A DNA stretch of 64,000 nucleotides from a virus (Duplodnaviria > Caudoviricetes), in the IMG/VR virus record IMGVR_UViG_3300036770_008730. The stretch is one strand, 5' to 3'. Under the pieces are notes generated by a model that searched no databases, was not told the origin of the DNA, and saw only the letters and a list, made by a program, of their open reading frames with translations. Positions 4,130 to 14,967 of the stretch are shown here, one piece after another; positions within the stretch are counted from its first letter, which is position 1; the number at the start of each line of letters is the position of its first letter. Made by a program: the position numbers and the translations under genes.

Positions 4130-5104
4130 ATGAGATTATTAAGATTTTTAGATTTTATTCTGGAAGCCGCATCTGATAAGTTACTTCCTTTCAGAGCTAG
4201 TAGTGATTTCGAAAAGAAAATAGATGAGATAGACTCTGCAATAGCTACTAAGTTTAGTCAGTATATTAGGTCTAGATACCCAAGTAAGTATACTCTAATA
4301 ACCATTTCAGATGAGGGAAATATTCAATACTCGGACTCTTATAGAGTAGATGAGTTTAAACAAAAAGAACTTGGTGAAGGATATCCTACTGATAGGTGGT
4401 TGAATTATTTCCCACCAAATCCATCAGATGAGATATTTTCTTATCGTAGGATTGAAATAGGTGTTGGTAAATTTATTAATAAAATATTCCCGGGTGATTT
4501 TAGCGCATCTGAAATAGAAAATTTTGTGAATCAATGGAGATCTTTAAGTGAAGTTCGCCCCAATTTTGAATTATGGTCTGGATATGAAATAAGAAGAGGT
4601 TATAGGTCCACTAACTATCATTATACAGATACTAATATGAATACTCTTATGAACTCATGTATGAATGATCAATTAGATTGTATAGAGATGTATGAGTATT
4701 GTCCTGAGTTAAGACTTTTGGTTTTATTGGATGATAATAATCACATACTTGGTAGGGCCCTAATTTGGAAAGACCATCAAGGTAGGTATATAATGGATAG
4801 AGTTTATTATGTTTATGATAGTGATTATCATAAATTCTTAAAATACGCTAAAGAGAATGGTTGGTGGTATAAAAAAAGAAATATAAGCGGTGGTTCATCT
4901 TTTATCAAAGATGATAAAGAAATGAGTCTCGATACAAAAGTGAGAGTTCCTGATGTATTTGATGCTGAATATAGAGGTGATAAATTTCCATATATGGATA
5001 CTTTTTTCTATGCTCAGGGAGAATGGGCATATAATAATCCACCGGATGAGGGTAGATATTTAAAATTGACCGATACCGAAGGTGGATTTGAAATATTCGA
5101 TTAG
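4130..5104 (+). CDS. conserved phage protein of unknown function, paralog of 50870..51832
   Basis: MRLLRFLDFILE; shared blocks NSCM, RAL.W, MDR.Y, PY.DTF. Confidence 0.75.
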   Translation: MRLLRFLDFILEAASDKLLPFRASSDFEKKIDEIDSAIATKFSQYIRSRYPSKYTLITISDEGNIQYSDSYRVDEFKQKELGEGYPTDRWLNYFPPNPSDEIFSYRRIEIGVGKFINKIFPGDFSASEIENFVNQWRSLSEVRPNFELWSGYEIRRGYRSTNYHYTDTNMNTLMNSCMNDQLDCIEMYEYCPELRLLVLLDDNNHILGRALIWKDHQGRYIMDRVYYVYDSDYHKFLKYAKENGWWYKKRNISGGSSFIKDDKEMSLDTKVRVPDVFDAEYRGDKFPYMDTFFYAQGEWAYNNPPDEGRYLKLTDTEGGFEIFD

Positions 5105-8688: not shown

Positions 8689-10980
8689 ATGAGAAAAGAG
8701 ATTTATGTATTAAAAAGAGATGGTCGCCAAGAGTTACTAAATTATGAAAAAATCAACAAGGTTCTTTTATGGGCAACAGAAGGTATTTCATCTGTTAGTG
8801 CATCCGATGTGGCTATGAACGCCAAATTACAAATTCATGATGGGATAAAAACCTCAGATATTCATAGAGTTTTGATACAGAGTGCTTCAGATATGATTAC
8901 TGAAGAAACACCAAACTACCAATTTGTGGCTTCTAAACTTTTAAACTATTTACTTAGGAAAGAAGTTTTTAATACCTACACAAATTTTCCAAGATTAAAG
9001 GATTTTATAAAATCAAATATTGAAAAGGGTGTTTATGATTCTGATGTTATTAATCATTATACGGAAAATGAGCTTGACAAAATTGAAGGATTTATTAAGC
9101 ATAAAAGAGATGAAGACTTGACTTATGCTGGTGTTCAACAATTAATGGATAAATATCTTGTTCAAAATAGAAAAACTGGAGATCATTATGAAACTCCTCA
9201 GTTTATGTATATGATGATTTCAATAACTCTTTTTGCTAAATATACTGGTGAAGACAGAATGGAAAAAATTAAAAGATTTTACGAGTTACTTTCTTTACAA
9301 AAGATTTCTCTTCCTACTCCTATTTTAGCTGGTGTTAGAACTCCAAACAAACAATTTTCATCTTGTGTCTTAATAGATGTGGCTGATGATTTGGATTCAA
9401 TTGGAGCATCCACACATGCTGTTTTAAGATACATTTCTAATAGAGCTGGTATCGGTCTTAACTTTAGATTAAGAGCTATTGGATCTGAAGTAAATGGTGG
9501 TGAGAAAGTTCATACTGGTTTAATTCCTTTCCTAAAAGTATTTGAATCAGCTGTTAAATCTTGTAGTCAAGGTGGTATCAGAGGTGGTGCGTCAACTGCC
9601 CATTATCCTTTCTGGCATAAAGAAATTATGGAGATCCTAGTGTTAAAAAACAATACAGGAAATGACCTTAATCGTGTTAGAAGAATGGATCATTCAATTC
9701 AATTATGTCGTTTATTCTATAAGAGATTTGTAGCTAAGGAAAACCTAACTCTTTTCTCACCAAATGATGTTCCGGATTTATATGAAGCATTTGGATATGA
9801 TAATGATAAGTTTGAATCACTTTATGCTAAGTATGAGAAAGATACTAAAATCTCTAAAGTAGTAATTCCAGCAGTTGAAGTAATGAACTTACTTCTTCAG
9901 GAAAGATTAGAGAATGGTAGAATTTACATTCAGAATTTAGATAATGCTAATACACACTCTGGTTTTATTGACAAAATCAATATGAGTAATTTATGTCAAG
10001 AAATCAATTTACCAACTACACCTTTTAAAGATGTTAATTCAGAAGAAGGTGAGATTGCACTTTGTGTACTTGGTGCTATCAATTTGGGAACTATTAAGGC
10101 TTTAGATGAATTAGAAGAAGTTTGTGAATACACGGTTAGAATGTTAGATTTTATTATTGAGATTCAAGATTATCCAGTTGCTGCAGCTAAAAAGATGTTG
10201 AAGAGAAGATCTTTAGGAGTTGGTGTTACTAACTTTGCTTATTGGTTAGCTAAAAATGGTTTAGATTACTCTAAAAACTCATTAGTTGAAATTGACCGTT
10301 TATTTGAACATATTCAATATTACTTATTGAAAGCTTCTAATAAATTGGCAAAAGAGTATGGTAAATGTGAATATTTTGATAAAACTAAGTATTCTTTAGG
10401 TCAATTACCAATCGACCATTATAACAAAAATATGGATACTCTGGTTAAAAGAGAATTTGAATGTGATTGGAATTCTCTTAGAAAAGATATTTTAGAATTT
10501 GGATTAAGAAATTCTGTTGTATCTGCTCAAATGCCTTGTGAAAGTTCTTCAGTTGTAAGTTCTTCAACTAATGGAATTGAGGCTCCGAGAAAATTAATCA
10601 CGGTGAAGAAATCAAAATCTGGCTCTCCACTTCCTGTTGTTGTTCCTGAAGTAAACAAATTAAAAAACAAATATTCAGTTTCATGGGGATTCAGTAACGA
10701 TGATATGAACAATGTTGTTGGTGTTATTCAAAAGTATTTTGACCAAGGTATTTCTGTAAATCATTACTACGATAAAAAGAAATACAAAGATGGTAATATT
10801 CCTCTTTCTGAAGTGGCTAAAGATATTATGACTTTTTACAAATTAGGAGGTAAACAAATCTATTACTCTAATTCAAAAGATTACAAATCTGACAAACTTG
10901 AAGATATTATCACAACAGAAAAGATTCATGTAATGGAAGAAGCTGGTGTAAATGATTGTGGAGATTCTTGCACAATTTAA
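8689..10980 (+). CDS. nrdA: ribonucleoside-diphosphate reductase class Ia alpha subunit with ATP cone
   Basis: N-terminal V.KRDG ATP cone, SSCVL, GGIRGG, SNLCQEI (thiyl Cys), AQMPCESSS, GGKQIYY, C-terminal CGDSCTI. Confidence 0.97.
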   Translation: MRKEIYVLKRDGRQELLNYEKINKVLLWATEGISSVSASDVAMNAKLQIHDGIKTSDIHRVLIQSASDMITEETPNYQFVASKLLNYLLRKEVFNTYTNFPRLKDFIKSNIEKGVYDSDVINHYTENELDKIEGFIKHKRDEDLTYAGVQQLMDKYLVQNRKTGDHYETPQFMYMMISITLFAKYTGEDRMEKIKRFYELLSLQKISLPTPILAGVRTPNKQFSSCVLIDVADDLDSIGASTHAVLRYISNRAGIGLNFRLRAIGSEVNGGEKVHTGLIPFLKVFESAVKSCSQGGIRGGASTAHYPFWHKEIMEILVLKNNTGNDLNRVRRMDHSIQLCRLFYKRFVAKENLTLFSPNDVPDLYEAFGYDNDKFESLYAKYEKDTKISKVVIPAVEVMNLLLQERLENGRIYIQNLDNANTHSGFIDKINMSNLCQEINLPTTPFKDVNSEEGEIALCVLGAINLGTIKALDELEEVCEYTVRMLDFIIEIQDYPVAAAKKMLKRRSLGVGVTNFAYWLAKNGLDYSKNSLVEIDRLFEHIQYYLLKASNKLAKEYGKCEYFDKTKYSLGQLPIDHYNKNMDTLVKREFECDWNSLRKDILEFGLRNSVVSAQMPCESSSVVSSSTNGIEAPRKLITVKKSKSGSPLPVVVPEVNKLKNKYSVSWGFSNDDMNNVVGVIQKYFDQGISVNHYYDKKKYKDGNIPLSEVAKDIMTFYKLGGKQIYYSNSKDYKSDKLEDIITTEKIHVMEEAGVNDCGDSCTI

Positions 10981-11047: not shown

Positions 11048-12121
11048 ATGTTAAACATACTAAATCTCGACAACAGTGTTGACTACACTAAAATTCCAGT
11101 ATTCTTTGGTTCAAGAGGAATGTCCGTTCAAAGATATGACAAGTTCAAATATCCTGGATTCTTTGAACTTTTCAAGAAACAAATAAATGCTTTCTGGTTA
11201 CCAGAAGAATTCGACTTATCAAAAGATAGATTAGATTACAAAAATATGAGTGATAATGAGAAATTCATTTTTACCTCAAATTTGAAATATCAAATTTTAC
11301 TTGATAGTGTTCAGTCTCGTGGTATTCCTCATTTAACTGAAGATCTTTCAAATCCTGAGGTCGAAGCTTTTTGCTCAGCTTGGTCTTTTTTTGAGACTAT
11401 TCACTCTTATTCATACACTTTTATCATTAAAAATGTTTATGCTCAACCAGGTGAAGTATTTGATAATATCTTAAATGATAATGAAATTATTAAGAGAGCC
11501 TCATCTGTTACAAAGTATTATGATGATATGATTAACTCTTATGGAGAAACAGAACTAGATAAGAAAAAGAAGTTATACTTAACTTTAATGAGTGTAAATA
11601 TTTTAGAAGGTATCAGATTCTATGTTAGTTTTGCTTGTTCTTACGCTTTTGCACAGAATGGTAAAATGGAAGGTAATGCTAAAGTAATTTCTTTAATCAA
11701 TAAAGATGAAAACTTACACTTAGGGTTTACTCAAAAGATATTGAGAGATATGTCTATTAATAAGGAAGAGGGATTCTTTGACATTGCTAATGAGCTAAAA
11801 CCTAAAGTTGTTGAAATGTTTAAGTTGGCAGCAGAAGAAGAAATGGAATGGGCTGATTATCTTTTCCAAAATGGTTCTATGTTAGGATTAAATGCTGATA
11901 TCTTAAAAAAGTATATGATGTTTTTAACTAATTCAAGATTGAAAGCTATTGGTTTAGATCCTATTTTTGAAAAAGTTAATAATCCTATCAACTGGATTAA
12001 TGCTTGGACAAACTCTGAATCAGTTCAGGCAGCTCCACAAGAAACAGAAATCGAATCTTATAATAAGGCGGCTGTTAATAACGACTTAAGTGATAGTGAT
12101 TTTGGTGATTTTAATTTTTAA
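11048..12121 (+). CDS. nrdB: ribonucleoside-diphosphate reductase class Ia beta subunit
   Basis: FWLPEE, LDSVQ, FETIHS.SY, LEGIRFY.SF, DENLH diiron motifs, APQE.E..SY tail. Confidence 0.97.
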   Translation: MLNILNLDNSVDYTKIPVFFGSRGMSVQRYDKFKYPGFFELFKKQINAFWLPEEFDLSKDRLDYKNMSDNEKFIFTSNLKYQILLDSVQSRGIPHLTEDLSNPEVEAFCSAWSFFETIHSYSYTFIIKNVYAQPGEVFDNILNDNEIIKRASSVTKYYDDMINSYGETELDKKKKLYLTLMSVNILEGIRFYVSFACSYAFAQNGKMEGNAKVISLINKDENLHLGFTQKILRDMSINKEEGFFDIANELKPKVVEMFKLAAEEEMEWADYLFQNGSMLGLNADILKKYMMFLTNSRLKAIGLDPIFEKVNNPINWINAWTNSESVQAAPQETEIESYNKAAVNNDLSDSDFGDFNF

Positions 12122-12160
12122 TTAAACTTTTTTAATTTTTAATTAAACTTTTTTAATTTT
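12111..12160. repeat. 21-nt tandem repeat, about 2.4 copies
   Basis: ttaatttttaattaaactttt at 12111 and 12132, partial copy at 12153. Confidence 0.75.
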
Positions 12161-12227
12161 AATACTATAAATAATCCACCTCTGAAAAAAGAGAAATTTT
12201 AGAGGTTGATATATACAAAACAAATTC

Positions 12228-12237
12228 GTTCTTTAAC
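12228..12237 (+). promoter_or_regulatory. boxA-like antitermination element (putative)
   Basis: GTTCTTTAAC resembles the boxA consensus TGCTCTTTAACA; lies just after a GATATATAC promoter-like element and before the structured leader. Confidence 0.4.
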
Positions 12238-12253
12238 TTATTGAAACAATATT

Positions 12254-12570
12254 CCAGTAGCGAATTAAAGAGATACTTCGAGGTTTATGAAAAAAAACTC
12301 TTTAATAATTTACTCTGGTCAATATATAAAAAACAGACATAGTGATAGTTTGAGATACATCGTTTTAAACTACAATTCAAAAAAAAAGTGTCCGCTAATT
12401 AGCAAGACTACTGATGTCCGAGATTGAATACTCTGACTATAAGTGAAAAAATTCAGATAGCACTCTGTAAAAGGCTAAGGAATTCATCAAATTCCTTTAA
12501 ATAAATGGATGTGAGAGATGTACTTGTAAATATCGACAAAGTTTTGAGAGAATTCTTTGTGACAACTTAG
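12254..12570 (+). ncRNA. putative TROVE/Ro60-associated structured RNA array (Y-RNA-like)
   Basis: Non-coding; related hairpins with (A/G)TAC(T/A)T-type loop motifs (GAGATACTTCG 12270, GAGATACATCG 12352, GAATACTCTG 12426, GATGTACTTG 12517); TGTCCG...GACTA twice (12389-12410, 12415-12439); directly upstream of the TROVE gene. Confidence 0.55.
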
Positions 12571-12602
12571 ACTAAGTTTTCTTGTTTGTTAATTATTAAA
12601 AT

Positions 12603-12641
12603 GACCAGATTAAATTAATTTTTAATCTGGTCTTTTGTTTT
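12603..12641 (+). terminator. intrinsic terminator immediately upstream of the TROVE gene (possible attenuator)
   Basis: Perfect 12-bp stem GACCAGATTAAA-ttaatt-TTTAATCTGGTC followed by TTTTGTTTT, about 30 nt before the ATG. Confidence 0.75.
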
Positions 12642-12673
12642 AAAATACTTATTAATAAATAAAAATAGAAATT

Positions 12674-14125
12674 ATGGCAAAATTTAATGCAACCTTACCG
12701 AAACAAAAAACTTTAACCACTAACTTAGCTGGTGGTAAAGCTTACAAACAATCAGAAGAAATGGCTTTTCTTTCTTTGATATTAACATCTTTTGTTAATG
12801 ACCAGTTCTATCGTGGTGCTGATACCTCAATAGACGAGTTAAAGCAAATGGTCTCTAGTATCAAAGACAAAGAGTTTATGGCAAAGGCCGCTGTTTATGC
12901 TAGAGATAAGTTTGGTATGAGAAGTATTACACATGCTCTCGCTGGTGAATTATCATCTCACCTAACAGGTGCTGAATGGGGTAAAAACTTTTATGATAAA
13001 GTAGTAATCAGACCAGATGATATGACAGAAATCTTATCTTATTATTTAGAGAATAAAACTGATAAGAAAAATCCTAAGTTTCCAAATGCTATTAAGAAAG
13101 GTTTTGCTAAAGCTTTTGATAAGTTTGATAACTATCAAATAGCTAAATATAAAAACGAGAACAAAGAGTTTAAGTTAGTTGATGTTGTTAATCTGGTTCA
13201 CCCATCACCTAATACTAGAAACAAATCCGCTTTAGAATCTTTAATCAAAGGTGAGTTGAAAAATACTCAAACTTGGGAGTCTAAGTTGTCTTTAGCTGGT
13301 CAGTTAGCTGAGACAGAAGAAGATTTAACAAAGTTAAAATCGGATGCTTGGTCTGAACTGATTCTATCTAAGAAAATTGGATATATGGCTCTGTTAAAGA
13401 ATTTGAGAAATATTATTCAACAATCACCTGATTCGGTAGATTCGGCTTGTGAATTACTTACTAATGAAAGTATGATTAAATCATCAAGAGTTCTTCCTTT
13501 CCGTTTCACAACCGCTTATGAAGAATTACAAAAGTTAGATTCATCTGACCTTACTCGTAAAGTGATTATTGCACTTAACCAGGCTTTAGAAACATCACTT
13601 TGTAATGTTCCTAAGTTAGATGGTTCTACTTTGGTAGTTTTAGATGTTAGTGGTTCAATGATGGGTAAACCATCTGAGATTGCTTCACTTTTTGGAGCGG
13701 TGTTAGCTAAAGTAAACAATGCTGATGTCCTAACATTCTCAACTGACTCTAACTATCTTTCTTACAATCCAATTGATTCGGTATTAAGTATTAGAGAAGG
13801 ATTTAGATTTGCTGGTGGTGGAACAAACTTTCCATCAATCTTTAGAAAAGCGAATAAGTCCTACGACAACATAATAATTCTGAGTGATATGCAAGGTTGG
13901 ATTGGTGGTGATACTCCTGTTAATGAGTTTAATGCTTATAAGAAAAAGTATGGTTGTAATCCTCATGTATTTTCTTGGGATTTAGCGGGTTATTCAACTT
14001 TACAATTTCCCGAGAATCAGGTGTATTGTTTATCTGGTTTCTCTGATAAAGTGTTTCAAGTGATGTCTTTGTTAAAAGAAGATAAACAAGCACTTATTAA
14101 TCAGATTAAACAGATCCAGTTGTAA
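12674..14125 (+). CDS. TROVE-domain (Ro60/Rsr-like) RNA-binding protein with vWA domain
   Basis: N.AGGKAY, F.AKAAVYAR...GMRS, RPDDMTEIL, QTWE..LS, YMALLKNLRN, SRVLPFRF, MIDAS DVSGSM, GGT, IILSDMQ. Confidence 0.92.
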   Translation: MAKFNATLPKQKTLTTNLAGGKAYKQSEEMAFLSLILTSFVNDQFYRGADTSIDELKQMVSSIKDKEFMAKAAVYARDKFGMRSITHALAGELSSHLTGAEWGKNFYDKVVIRPDDMTEILSYYLENKTDKKNPKFPNAIKKGFAKAFDKFDNYQIAKYKNENKEFKLVDVVNLVHPSPNTRNKSALESLIKGELKNTQTWESKLSLAGQLAETEEDLTKLKSDAWSELILSKKIGYMALLKNLRNIIQQSPDSVDSACELLTNESMIKSSRVLPFRFTTAYEELQKLDSSDLTRKVIIALNQALETSLCNVPKLDGSTLVVLDVSGSMMGKPSEIASLFGAVLAKVNNADVLTFSTDSNYLSYNPIDSVLSIREGFRFAGGGTNFPSIFRKANKSYDNIIILSDMQGWIGGDTPVNEFNAYKKKYGCNPHVFSWDLAGYSTLQFPENQVYCLSGFSDKVFQVMSLLKEDKQALINQIKQIQL

Positions 14126-14129
14126 AAAG

Positions 14130-14157
14130 AAAACCACTCAATGAGTGGTTTTTTTGT
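14130..14157. terminator. bidirectional intrinsic terminator
   Basis: AAAACCACTC-aat-GAGTGGTTTT between convergent genes. Confidence 0.8.
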
Positions 14158-14196
14158 ATCTATTCTTCGATTCTATCTAATTCATACGAAACAAAA

Positions 14197-14967
14197 TTAT
14201 CCGTTGTAGTAGTAATTGAAGTCCTCTTCAATATACCATTCGATTGAAGCCTCTACTTCTCCCCAATCTATAGTAAAGGTTTTTGATTCATTATCATATT
14301 CACCAATTCCATAGATGTCATCTTCAGTGACAAATCCAACCATGATTATATCTTCTTGAATATTGTAATCTAAATACTTTTGTAAGTTTATACCAGTGCC
14401 AGTAACAGTTTGTCTTTTGTAATAATCTGTGAGTTGTTTTATACCTCTTTGGAATTCTGGTGTAAATTTTGATTTATTTAAATAATCGGAATATACTTTA
14501 TCTAATTCTTCCTTTTTGATAGTATCTGATTCAAACTGAATATCGAATCTATATTTGATTAGTTCATTTGATACCGTGCTTAAGTAATCGTTCTTTTTGA
14601 GTTTTATTCCTTTTTCAGAAACTCTACTAATCATAGGTTCAATAGAACCAATTATCATTGATAGCTTAGATTGTATTTGTTTGAATTGTTCGAACGTTCC
14701 GTTTTTTTCGGATAAGAATTGAATTGATATGCCATATTCAATTTTATATTGTTTATCTTTTTCTAAATCTACATTAATAATGTGTCCTCTTTCATCAACA
14801 ATATGACAACTTTTTGTGATTTCGAAATCTTTGTCATCTATTATATCCCATAAACTATCTTCAAATTCTGACCAATCTAAAGATTTAGACTTAATAAAAT
14901 CGTTTAATTCTCTGGATATACCAAATGATTCATTAATAAAAAAGTTTTCAAATCTTTTAATTTTCAT
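14197..14967 (-). CDS. hypothetical protein with capsid-targeting-like N-terminus
   Basis: MKIKRFENFFINE; TTTAATATATAC 4 nt upstream of the ATG. Confidence 0.7.
   Translation of the reverse strand: MKIKRFENFFINESFGISRELNDFIKSKSLDWSEFEDSLWDIIDDKDFEITKSCHIVDERGHIINVDLEKDKQYKIEYGISIQFLSEKNGTFEQFKQIQSKLSMIIGSIEPMISRVSEKGIKLKKNDYLSTVSNELIKYRFDIQFESDTIKKEELDKVYSDYLNKSKFTPEFQRGIKQLTDYYKRQTVTGTGINLQKYLDYNIQEDIIMVGFVTEDDIYGIGEYDNESKTFTIDWGEVEASIEWYIEEDFNYYYNG

Follow-up and report, generated by a model that had tools for sequence, protein, structure and literature searches.

Ro60 and its Y RNA partners are conserved from bacteria to humans. Among phage-encoded Ro60 proteins that of Thermus phage phiLo is, to our knowledge, the only studied case, with RNAs that were chosen by a 4-nt motif. 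A 64,000-nt stretch of the Caudoviricetes virus record IMGVR_UViG_3300036770_008730 (the window) carries a gene for a TROVE/Ro60-like protein downstream of a gap of 552 nt, and the question that this locus raises is whether the gap encodes an RNA partner for the phage protein. A first-pass annotation, made from the sequence alone, had divided the gap into four related Y-RNA-like units and proposed that they were either processed into several small Ro-binding RNAs or acted as a Ro-sensing attenuator. The analysis described here points instead to one RNA with two paralogous handles, putative protein-docking sites, which is a candidate partner of the phage Ro60.

It is already known that phage Ro60 genes can have neighbouring Y-like RNAs (PMC4201824, PMC12135203). 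YrlA RNAs, known from bacteria and from 22 phages, are bound by Rsr, consist of a stem module and a tRNA-like module, and have their genes near that of Ro60; bacterial and phage Y RNAs adjoin Ro60 on the same strand, often upstream (PMC4201824). The Ro60 of phiLo binds two upstream Y-like RNAs and forms dimers, although the study gives no conservation or expression data for these Yrl RNAs (PMC12135203), and a review of jumbo phages describes TROVE with a tRNA-like partner (PMC7824862). Precedents for function come from Deinococcus and Salmonella, with their Ro-Y-PNPase machine, and from phiLo, whose Ro60-Yrl-PNPase complexes include dimeric assemblies (PMC4201824, PMC12135203).

Results and discussion

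The region 12254-12641 makes up a single structured RNA rather than an array of four units. Its parts and the gene that follows are listed here; R1 is the covariance model of U1, with which 41 homologues were aligned.

12254-12641, + strand: whole non-coding RNA, ~390 nt, made up of the U1 hairpin, the U2 handle with its enclosed domain, and the terminator
12254-12318, + strand: U1, the first handle hairpin, 65 nt, with covariation and an R1 score of 81 bits
12332-12362, + strand: 5' strand of the U2 handle, AACAGACA, bulged U12340, AG, U, GA, UAGUUUGAG and the motif AUACAUCG (12355-12362)
12363-12565, + strand: domain within the U2 handle, ~200 nt, with several hairpins, A-rich strands (GUGAAAAAG) and a hypervariable hairpin; not tRNA-like
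12566-12590, + strand: 3' strand of the U2 handle, CUUAGACUA, AGUUUU, CU and UGUUUGUU
12603-12641, + strand: intrinsic terminator, GACCAGAUUAAA / UUUAAUCUGGUC plus UUUUGUUUU, with a stem-loop at 12603-12632 (12 bp, loop of 6) and a T run
12674-14125, + strand: gene for the TROVE/Ro60-like protein, 483 aa, TROVE ring plus vWA

Across ~40 loci the conservation of the RNA exceeds that of its flanks, and the fold z-score of the RNA is -2.5. In the alignment and by RNAalifold, U1 is a hairpin with a CCAG/CUGG basal helix, a bulged U (U12258), the element AGYGA/UUNCU (AGCGA in the window) and a covarying upper stem, AAAGAG/CUCUUU. Its loop opens with AUACUUCG (12273-12280), which is (A/U)UACUUCG across homologues, and closes with an A-rich strand ending in ACA; a conserved UC (12319-12320) lies directly 3' of the hairpin. 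On the 41 homologues 96.2% of the cells were paired, compared with 79.2% in shuffles and less than 50% with slid partners. Compensatory changes were found in 15 of the 18 pairs, with 100 cells changed on both sides, and none of 500 shuffles scored as high. An alignment of U1 made with MAFFT, not fitted to the model, gave the same picture.

The 5' strand of U2 (12332-12354) is predicted to pair with 12566-12590, ~210 nt away. The basal helix covaries (GCAAACA/UGUUUGC, GAGGACA/UGUCCUC and GAAGGCA/UGCCUUC; columns 102-111 with 507-515), the pair beyond it switches from A-U to G-C, and within the upper 9 bp other clades have U·G replaced by G·U, and G·U by G-C or A-U. Duplex folding gave U1 and U2 the same architecture, namely a basal helix, a 1-nt bulge, 2 bp, a mismatch, 2 bp, a 3-nt bulge in the 3' strand and 9-11 bp. 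Both carry the motif GAG-(A/U)UAC(U/A)UCG, which is near-invariant in all homologues and whose second copy in the window is GAGAUACAUCG (12352-12362). Since the duplex architecture is identical, U1 and U2 are, as judged from sequence and predicted pairing, paralogous handles, each with a basal helix, a bulged U, AGNGA/UUNCU, a covarying stem and GAG-WUACUUCG.

A local hairpin in U2, AUAGUUU/AAACUAU, as drawn in the first-pass annotation, is less likely: the 3' side of this hairpin shows little conservation, against an invariant AUAG, and the distal partner was favoured in 13 of 20 sequences. The competing local hairpin is still favoured in the other 7.

The enclosed domain contains helices that covary when inspected by eye: AGUGNN...NNC-U-ACU; AAGGAA/UUCCUU; GUGA/UCAC, which varies with GGAU/AUCC and CGUG/CACG; and CAAAG/CUUUG, which varies with CGAAG/CUUCG and AUUGGAG/CUUCAAU. 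This assignment rests on such inspection; on a broad alignment (34 sequences) covering the 3' half of the RNA, RNAalifold recovered only the terminator and none of these helices. In the inner hairpin AGUGNN-AGC-GACAGCAA-NNC-U-ACU (12388-12411; A3 columns 199-224) most homologues have GACAGCAA and the window has UUAGCAA. The terminator, which ends 33 nt before the TROVE ATG, is present in every homologue. Its inner pairs covary, and its basal pairs, CCAG/CUGG+UC, repeat those of U1.

The features named in the first description of the gap are all in the sequence, with a different anatomy. The U1 hairpin, the loop motif shared by U1 and U2 and the 12-bp terminator, the last located by a terminator scan, were placed and described correctly. 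The reading of U2 as a local hairpin (12336-12392) is probably wrong, given its distal pairing, and no similarity to U1 or U2 was found in the supposed units U3 and U4, both of which are hairpins inside the enclosed domain; in place of four related units there are two handles, one of them enclosing a large domain. The tandem TGTCCG...GACTA repeat is present in the window but is not a conserved Ro-binding signature: GUCCG...GACUA (12389-12439) is peculiar to the window, where it falls on the stem AGUGNN/NNC-U-ACU and on the hypervariable hairpin, and the corresponding positions in homologues are variable or covarying.

The protein encoded downstream is recognised by Pfam as a TROVE protein (PF05731; E 2.9e-20, 73.3 bits, cut-off 23). 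It aligns over its full length (residues 12-474) to the Ro60 of phage phiLo (PDB 9KOP/9L5Y; E 7e-24), its closest solved homologue; Xenopus and human Ro60 match more weakly (E 1e-4), and the vWA_Ro60 match is weak, its 20.7 bits being under the cut-off of 27.7. On these similarities the open reading frame (ORF) at 12674-14125 encodes a full-length Ro60 homologue, as had been proposed.

Protein-guided and pattern-guided scans of IMG/VR gave ~40 distinct loci with TROVE proteins 53-75% identical to that of the window. Looser DNA-pattern scans gave one true locus among metagenome contigs and two, L159 and L232, among viral contigs, the remainder being almost all chance matches. The nearest relative in GenBank is LR745206.1, an uncultured huge phage of 634 kb, in which gap and gene together are 70% identical in DNA. 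Wherever a related locus had enough flank, the RNA was located on the TROVE strand, 320-660 nt upstream of the gene; this holds for all 19 of the loci that were retrieved by the TROVE protein alone. Conservation and covariation of the hairpins and loop motif upstream of homologous TROVE genes, on which the earlier proposal had been made to depend, were thus found for the U1 handle and the UACUUCG motif. nrdB is the upstream neighbour only in the window and the upstream gene varies elsewhere, while TROVE is constant; the RNA therefore travels with TROVE and not with nrdB.

The linkage extends to the crAss-like phage cr111_1 (L272), in which R1 placed a handle (43 bits, E 6e-9) ahead of TROVE on the upstream side. 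This TROVE protein has ~31% identity overall to that of the window and 42% across the N-terminal 296 residues. Its handle has CUCAA/UUGAG as a compensatory replacement of CCAG/CUGG, and the bulged U, AGUGA/UUACU and GUUACAUCG are kept. The handle hairpin (1757-1831) and a terminator (~2158-2198) lie in a 700-nt unannotated region (L272 1500-2200), and 3' of the handle there is a T-arm-like GGGTTCGAATCCC; ARAGORN did not call the tRNA-like stretch there, which has a perfect T arm (~2085-2105).

R1 found no handle in the whole records of Vibrio phage phiKT1024 and csAssE-Sib, nor in the TROVE loci of Arthrobacter phage Atuin, Thermus phage phiLo and Streptomyces phage BRock. Rfam YrlA was likewise silent in the five TROVE phage loci scanned (csAssE-Sib excluded), for which there was no Rfam positive control. 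The sequence UUUACUUCGG upstream of the phiLo Ro60 gene was considered as a handle and set aside as a chance match, as it seems to lie in a possible coding stretch and was empty with R1.

An index of public runs placed the stretch in metagenomes from the subsurface and from freshwater, and also in several metatranscriptomes of lakes. Contigs from four of these lake RNA libraries, each from a different study, were aligned to 11400-14400. They matched at 12255-12605 (the whole of a 351-nt contig, with 1 mismatch), 12284-12591, 12297-12600 and 12342-12604, so that a transcript from the predicted region, 12230-12600, was found; contigs of close variants of the RNA match as well. nrdB was not covered, and neither was TROVE except by one 30-nt contig fragment (13094-13123, X19). 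As carry-over of DNA would cover the flanks, the restriction of coverage to the RNA region indicates that the RNA is a discrete, abundant species in lakes. The 351-nt contig starts 1 nt inside the U1 base, spans U1 and most of U2, and reaches the terminator stem. It points to a single RNA, or at least a single precursor, and processing into several small RNAs is not indicated, although contigs cannot exclude it; assemblers tend to break at the terminator palindrome.

The relationship to Y RNAs emerged from relatives of the window. In L289, whose TROVE protein is 53% identical, three tandem handle units (2400-2760) lie upstream of TROVE, the last of them ~250 nt from the ATG. Unit B was the best Rfam match to YrlA (RF02553; 30.6 bits, E 1.3e-4, under the gathering score of 69), and its handle holds, in the permuted order that YrlA typically shows, a T arm, an acceptor-like stem-loop and a D arm. 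The body inside unit C is tRNA-like (26.6 bits) but has no acceptor stem. R1 also found three more handle RNAs in LR745206.1, a record that carries no annotation, between tRNA genes and 100-150 kb from TROVE:

L301 1501-1577: handle at ~343 kb, found with R1
L302 1501-1647: handle at ~369 kb, found with R1
L303 1501-1613: handle at ~389 kb, found with R1

One of the three is a simple handle, one has, by eye, a T arm, stem and D arm, and one has a T arm only; the unit with the T arm, stem and D arm had no YrlA match at E up to 0.01. Given that the handle occurs on YrlA-type mimics in relatives, and given the definition of YrlA, the handle is most readily understood as the stem (protein-binding) module in a phage lineage of Y RNAs of the YrlA type. 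On the same grounds the window RNA would be a variant with two handles fused together and with another domain in place of the tRNA mimic.

The window RNA itself had no match at the gathering score in any Rfam family, and the region 12100-12700 had none at E up to 10 apart from chance-level terminator matches. Neither ARAGORN nor Rfam (E up to 10) found a tRNA or tRNA-like module in 12100-12700. The suggested comparison with Rfam Y_RNA and YrlA was thus negative in that interval, and the description of the RNA as not tRNA-like holds.

Like YrlA and YrlB, the window RNA lies next to a Ro60 gene on the same strand and has a long interrupted stem with a variable module, and several Y-like units can occur per locus. 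A Ro60 gene within ~4 kb on the same strand is part of the YrlA description, and here the RNA ends 33 nt 5' of the TROVE ATG. The permuted mimic of T arm, acceptor and D arm in the same handle is shared only by relatives (unit B of L289, sub-threshold); the window RNA differs from YrlA in that it has no tRNA-like module, no GNCGAAN0-1G and no Rfam match, and with two fused handles it is ~390 nt long, compared with ~100-120 nt for YrlA. GNCGAAN0-1G is the presumed Rsr contact close to the 5' end of YrlA; at 12261-12268 the window has AGCGAAUU, but homologues have AGUGAAUU or AGUAAAUU. The invariant handle motif WUACUUCG often continues with A (CGA or CGAA).

The phiLo Ro60 with Yrl1 and Yrl2 resembles the present system in having Y-like RNAs in the non-coding region just upstream of a phage Ro60, and the reported dimeric assemblies fit a two-handle RNA, but its RNAs differ in being short hairpins identified by a CGAA motif (PMC12135203). 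With the Y RNAs of metazoa and Deinococcus (RF00019) the window RNA shares a bulged, sequence-conserved helix as the presumed protein-binding site. It differs from them in lacking the GGUCCGA/UUGACU helix with its bulged C, a different helix with a bulged U being conserved instead, and in having no Rfam match, a much larger size and an intrinsic terminator of bacterial type. CUGGUC is also found at the 5' end of vertebrate Y RNAs, a resemblance only.

Taken together, the linkage to TROVE, the handle on YrlA-like mimics and the discrete expression support the proposal of a dedicated, non-tRNA-like RNA of Y-RNA type before a phage Ro60. The best-supported reading, which we consider probable, is that of a trans-acting Ro60 partner with two docking handles and a new cargo domain; the partnership with TROVE is a candidate one, argued by analogy with Y RNAs. 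The stable ~390-nt RNA (12254-12641) would be the cognate partner of the Ro60 encoded 33 nt downstream. Each handle may dock a TROVE ring, so that one RNA could hold two rings. The cargo of U1 would be a small A-rich loop and that of U2 a novel multi-hairpin domain of ~200 nt, in the place of the tRNA mimic of related RNAs. If this domain works as in Y RNAs, it might bring in an effector, for example a host exoribonuclease, or control its access; the host of this clade of huge phages is presumably a member of the Bacteroidota. The terminator would release the RNA and keep it in large excess over TROVE mRNA.

Several observations weigh against this reading. Rfam Y_RNA and YrlA give no match in the window even at E up to 10, the YrlA match of the L289 relative is sub-threshold, and the canonical Ro-binding signatures, GGUCCGA/UUGACU and GNCGAAN0-1G, are absent or unconserved; GUCCG/GACUA, which had been taken as such a signature, is the window-specific repeat discussed above. 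The metatranscriptome contigs give no strand, exact ends or abundance. A handle RNA occurs on a 32.8-kb IMG/VR contig with direct terminal repeats that has no TROVE gene (L232). Finally, the terminator lies 33 nt 5' of the TROVE ATG, on the same strand and with no recognisable promoter between them.

This last point also fits an alternative in which the RNA is chiefly a cis leader and conditional termination controls TROVE expression, as in the Ro-sensing attenuator of the first-pass annotation. GACC (12603-12606) would pair either with the 3' strand of the terminator or with the conserved GGUC (12317-12320), thereby extending the closing helix of U2. It is consistent with such a switch that the 3' strands of the U1 base and the terminator are the same word (CUCUGGUC / AUCUGGUC), that these words change jointly in L008/L015 (CGGUC in both) and in L159 (CUGAUU in both, UC/GA becoming UU/AA), and that the linkers beside GGUC and GACC are complementary in several clades, e.g. 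UUUUGAAA/UUUCAAAA and GGUCAUUAU/AUAAUGACC. However, the joint change has exceptions (in L290, L293 and L296 the U1 pairs are CCG/CGG but those of the terminator CCAG/CUGG) and the linker complementarity barely beats that of shuffles (mean z -0.8, with 5 of 21 below -2). All homologues could pair the U1 3' strand with the terminator 5' strand, but at an energetic cost: the fold of minimum energy is almost always the two-hairpin state, and the alternative lies 3-10 kcal/mol above it (2.8 for the window). Handle RNAs also occur far from TROVE in tRNA arrays and on the TROVE-less contig, 75-260 nt are inserted between terminator and ATG in L011, L299 and L289, and the RNA accumulates as a discrete species. 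A chiefly cis function is therefore unlikely, although a cis role could coexist with the trans role.

A second alternative is that the RNA acts independently of the phage TROVE protein, as a decoy or sponge for a host factor (Rsr, RNases or tRNA-targeting defence nucleases) or as a regulatory small RNA, the synteny reflecting shared timing. The absence of known Ro-binding motifs would be expected in that case, as would handle RNAs within tRNA arrays and the orphan handle plus terminator of L232. On that contig (7616-7745) the U2 domain is lacking, a U1-type handle hairpin leads straight into a terminator of the same kind, and the downstream gene is convergent. The L232 handle is an orphan Y-like RNA, and the handle may not strictly need a phage-encoded Ro. 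Independence is nevertheless quite improbable in view of the strict adjacency to TROVE over ~40 loci with changing neighbours, which holds also in the crAss-like phage with its TROVE only ~31% identical, and of the YrlA-type tRNA mimics that the handle carries, Rsr-bound YrlA being the known class of that design (PMC4201824).

That the stretch makes no functional RNA, and is instead a protein-coding remnant (a 46-aa ORF, 12287-12427, is in the ORF list) or a decaying or selfish repeat, is scarcely credible given the compensatory base-pair changes in the stems, indels that are not multiples of three, the discrete expression, and DNA conservation in the gap, with long invariant blocks, that equals or exceeds that of the neighbouring protein gene.

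The features that flank the RNA and the TROVE gene are as follows.

8689-10980: nrdA
11048-12121: nrdB (Pfam Ribonuc_red_sm, 9e-55)
12174-12210, + strand: upstream hairpin, AUCCACCUCU / AGAGGUUGAU with a 17-nt A-rich loop, then GATATATAC; conserved, and outside the stable RNA
12208-12216, + strand: promoter-like GATATATAC
12228-12237, + strand: boxA-like GTTCTTTAAC, 5' of the RNA start seen in the metatranscriptome contigs (12255)
14127-14155, + strand: terminator 3' of the TROVE gene, 13 pairs plus a T run

The gap between nrdB and TROVE (12122-12673), noted before at ~550 nt, is longer than any other internal stretch of the window that has no ORF of at least 90 aa; the window has a G+C content of 30% and is thus AT-rich. 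The upstream hairpin is kept in the window and in L001-L005, with covarying pairs (CCUCU/AGAGG compared with CCCUU/AAGGG), and could belong to a promoter region or leader. A check of the sequence placed GATATATAC (12208) and GTTCTTTAAC (12228) where they had been reported. The boxA-like 10-mer is therefore present, but not as a conserved, functional boxA: CGTTCTTTAA occurs in only ~5 related loci (the window, L004/L012, L017 and L038), at shifting positions, it is not enriched in the window (8 matches compared with 7.4 expected) and it lies outside the stable RNA. It is probably no functional part of the module.

Hairpins on the word AATCCACC...GGTGGATT recur in the window at 2671-2701, 5035-5089 and 12174-12210. 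That at 2671 is a bidirectional terminator; those at 5035 and 12174 have long loops and are preceded by TATAA(T/A)TAATCCACC. These hairpins could be a phage-specific regulatory or promoter-proximal element. Directly after the nrdB stop there is a tandem direct repeat, TTAATTAAACTTTTTTAATTTT x2 (12113-12160). The word AAACTTTT is found in most relatives instead between the upstream hairpin and U1, 12-14 nt 5' of an ATAAAAG box, an arrangement that is a possible promoter of the RNA.

In Arthrobacter phage Atuin (L273) ribonucleotide reductase genes likewise lie just upstream of the Ro-like gene, within a large tRNA array. In several relatives (L290 3001-5133; also L291, L297 and L036) the TROVE gene is interrupted after residue ~156-161 by a 224-aa ORF with NUMOD3 and HNH motifs, which is probably a homing endonuclease; Rfam found no group I or group II intron around it. 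A DUF2828 match was absent from three relatives, and a control search was likewise empty everywhere.

Conclusions

Neither the handle (bulged U, AGNGA/UUNCU, GAG-WUACUUCG) nor the ~390-nt two-handle RNA with its non-tRNA domain and its expression in situ was found described in Rfam 15 or in the literature searched. The locus thus offers a phylogenetically supported candidate RNA partner for a phage Ro60, with a defined, covarying handle and with natural variants that have no cargo, a tRNA mimic or a novel domain of 200 nt. Handle and cargo variants are concrete constructs for binding, structural and pull-down experiments, and a covariance model could annotate handle RNAs, now unannotated, in phage genomes, including those inside tRNA arrays. 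The module occurs in huge phages of freshwater and the subsurface and in a crAss-like phage of the human gut, with evidence of strong expression in nature.

A bolder proposal, possible but doubtful, is that the ~200-nt U2 domain is a new structured module that replaced the YrlA tRNA mimic, that the RNA joins two Ro60 rings and an effector of host or phage, and that the duplicated CCAG/CUGG-UC acts as a Ro-sensitive switch of read-through into TROVE. If true, this would be a self-regulating viral ribonucleoprotein, abundant in lakes, with a function distinct from that of the Ro-Y-PNPase machine.

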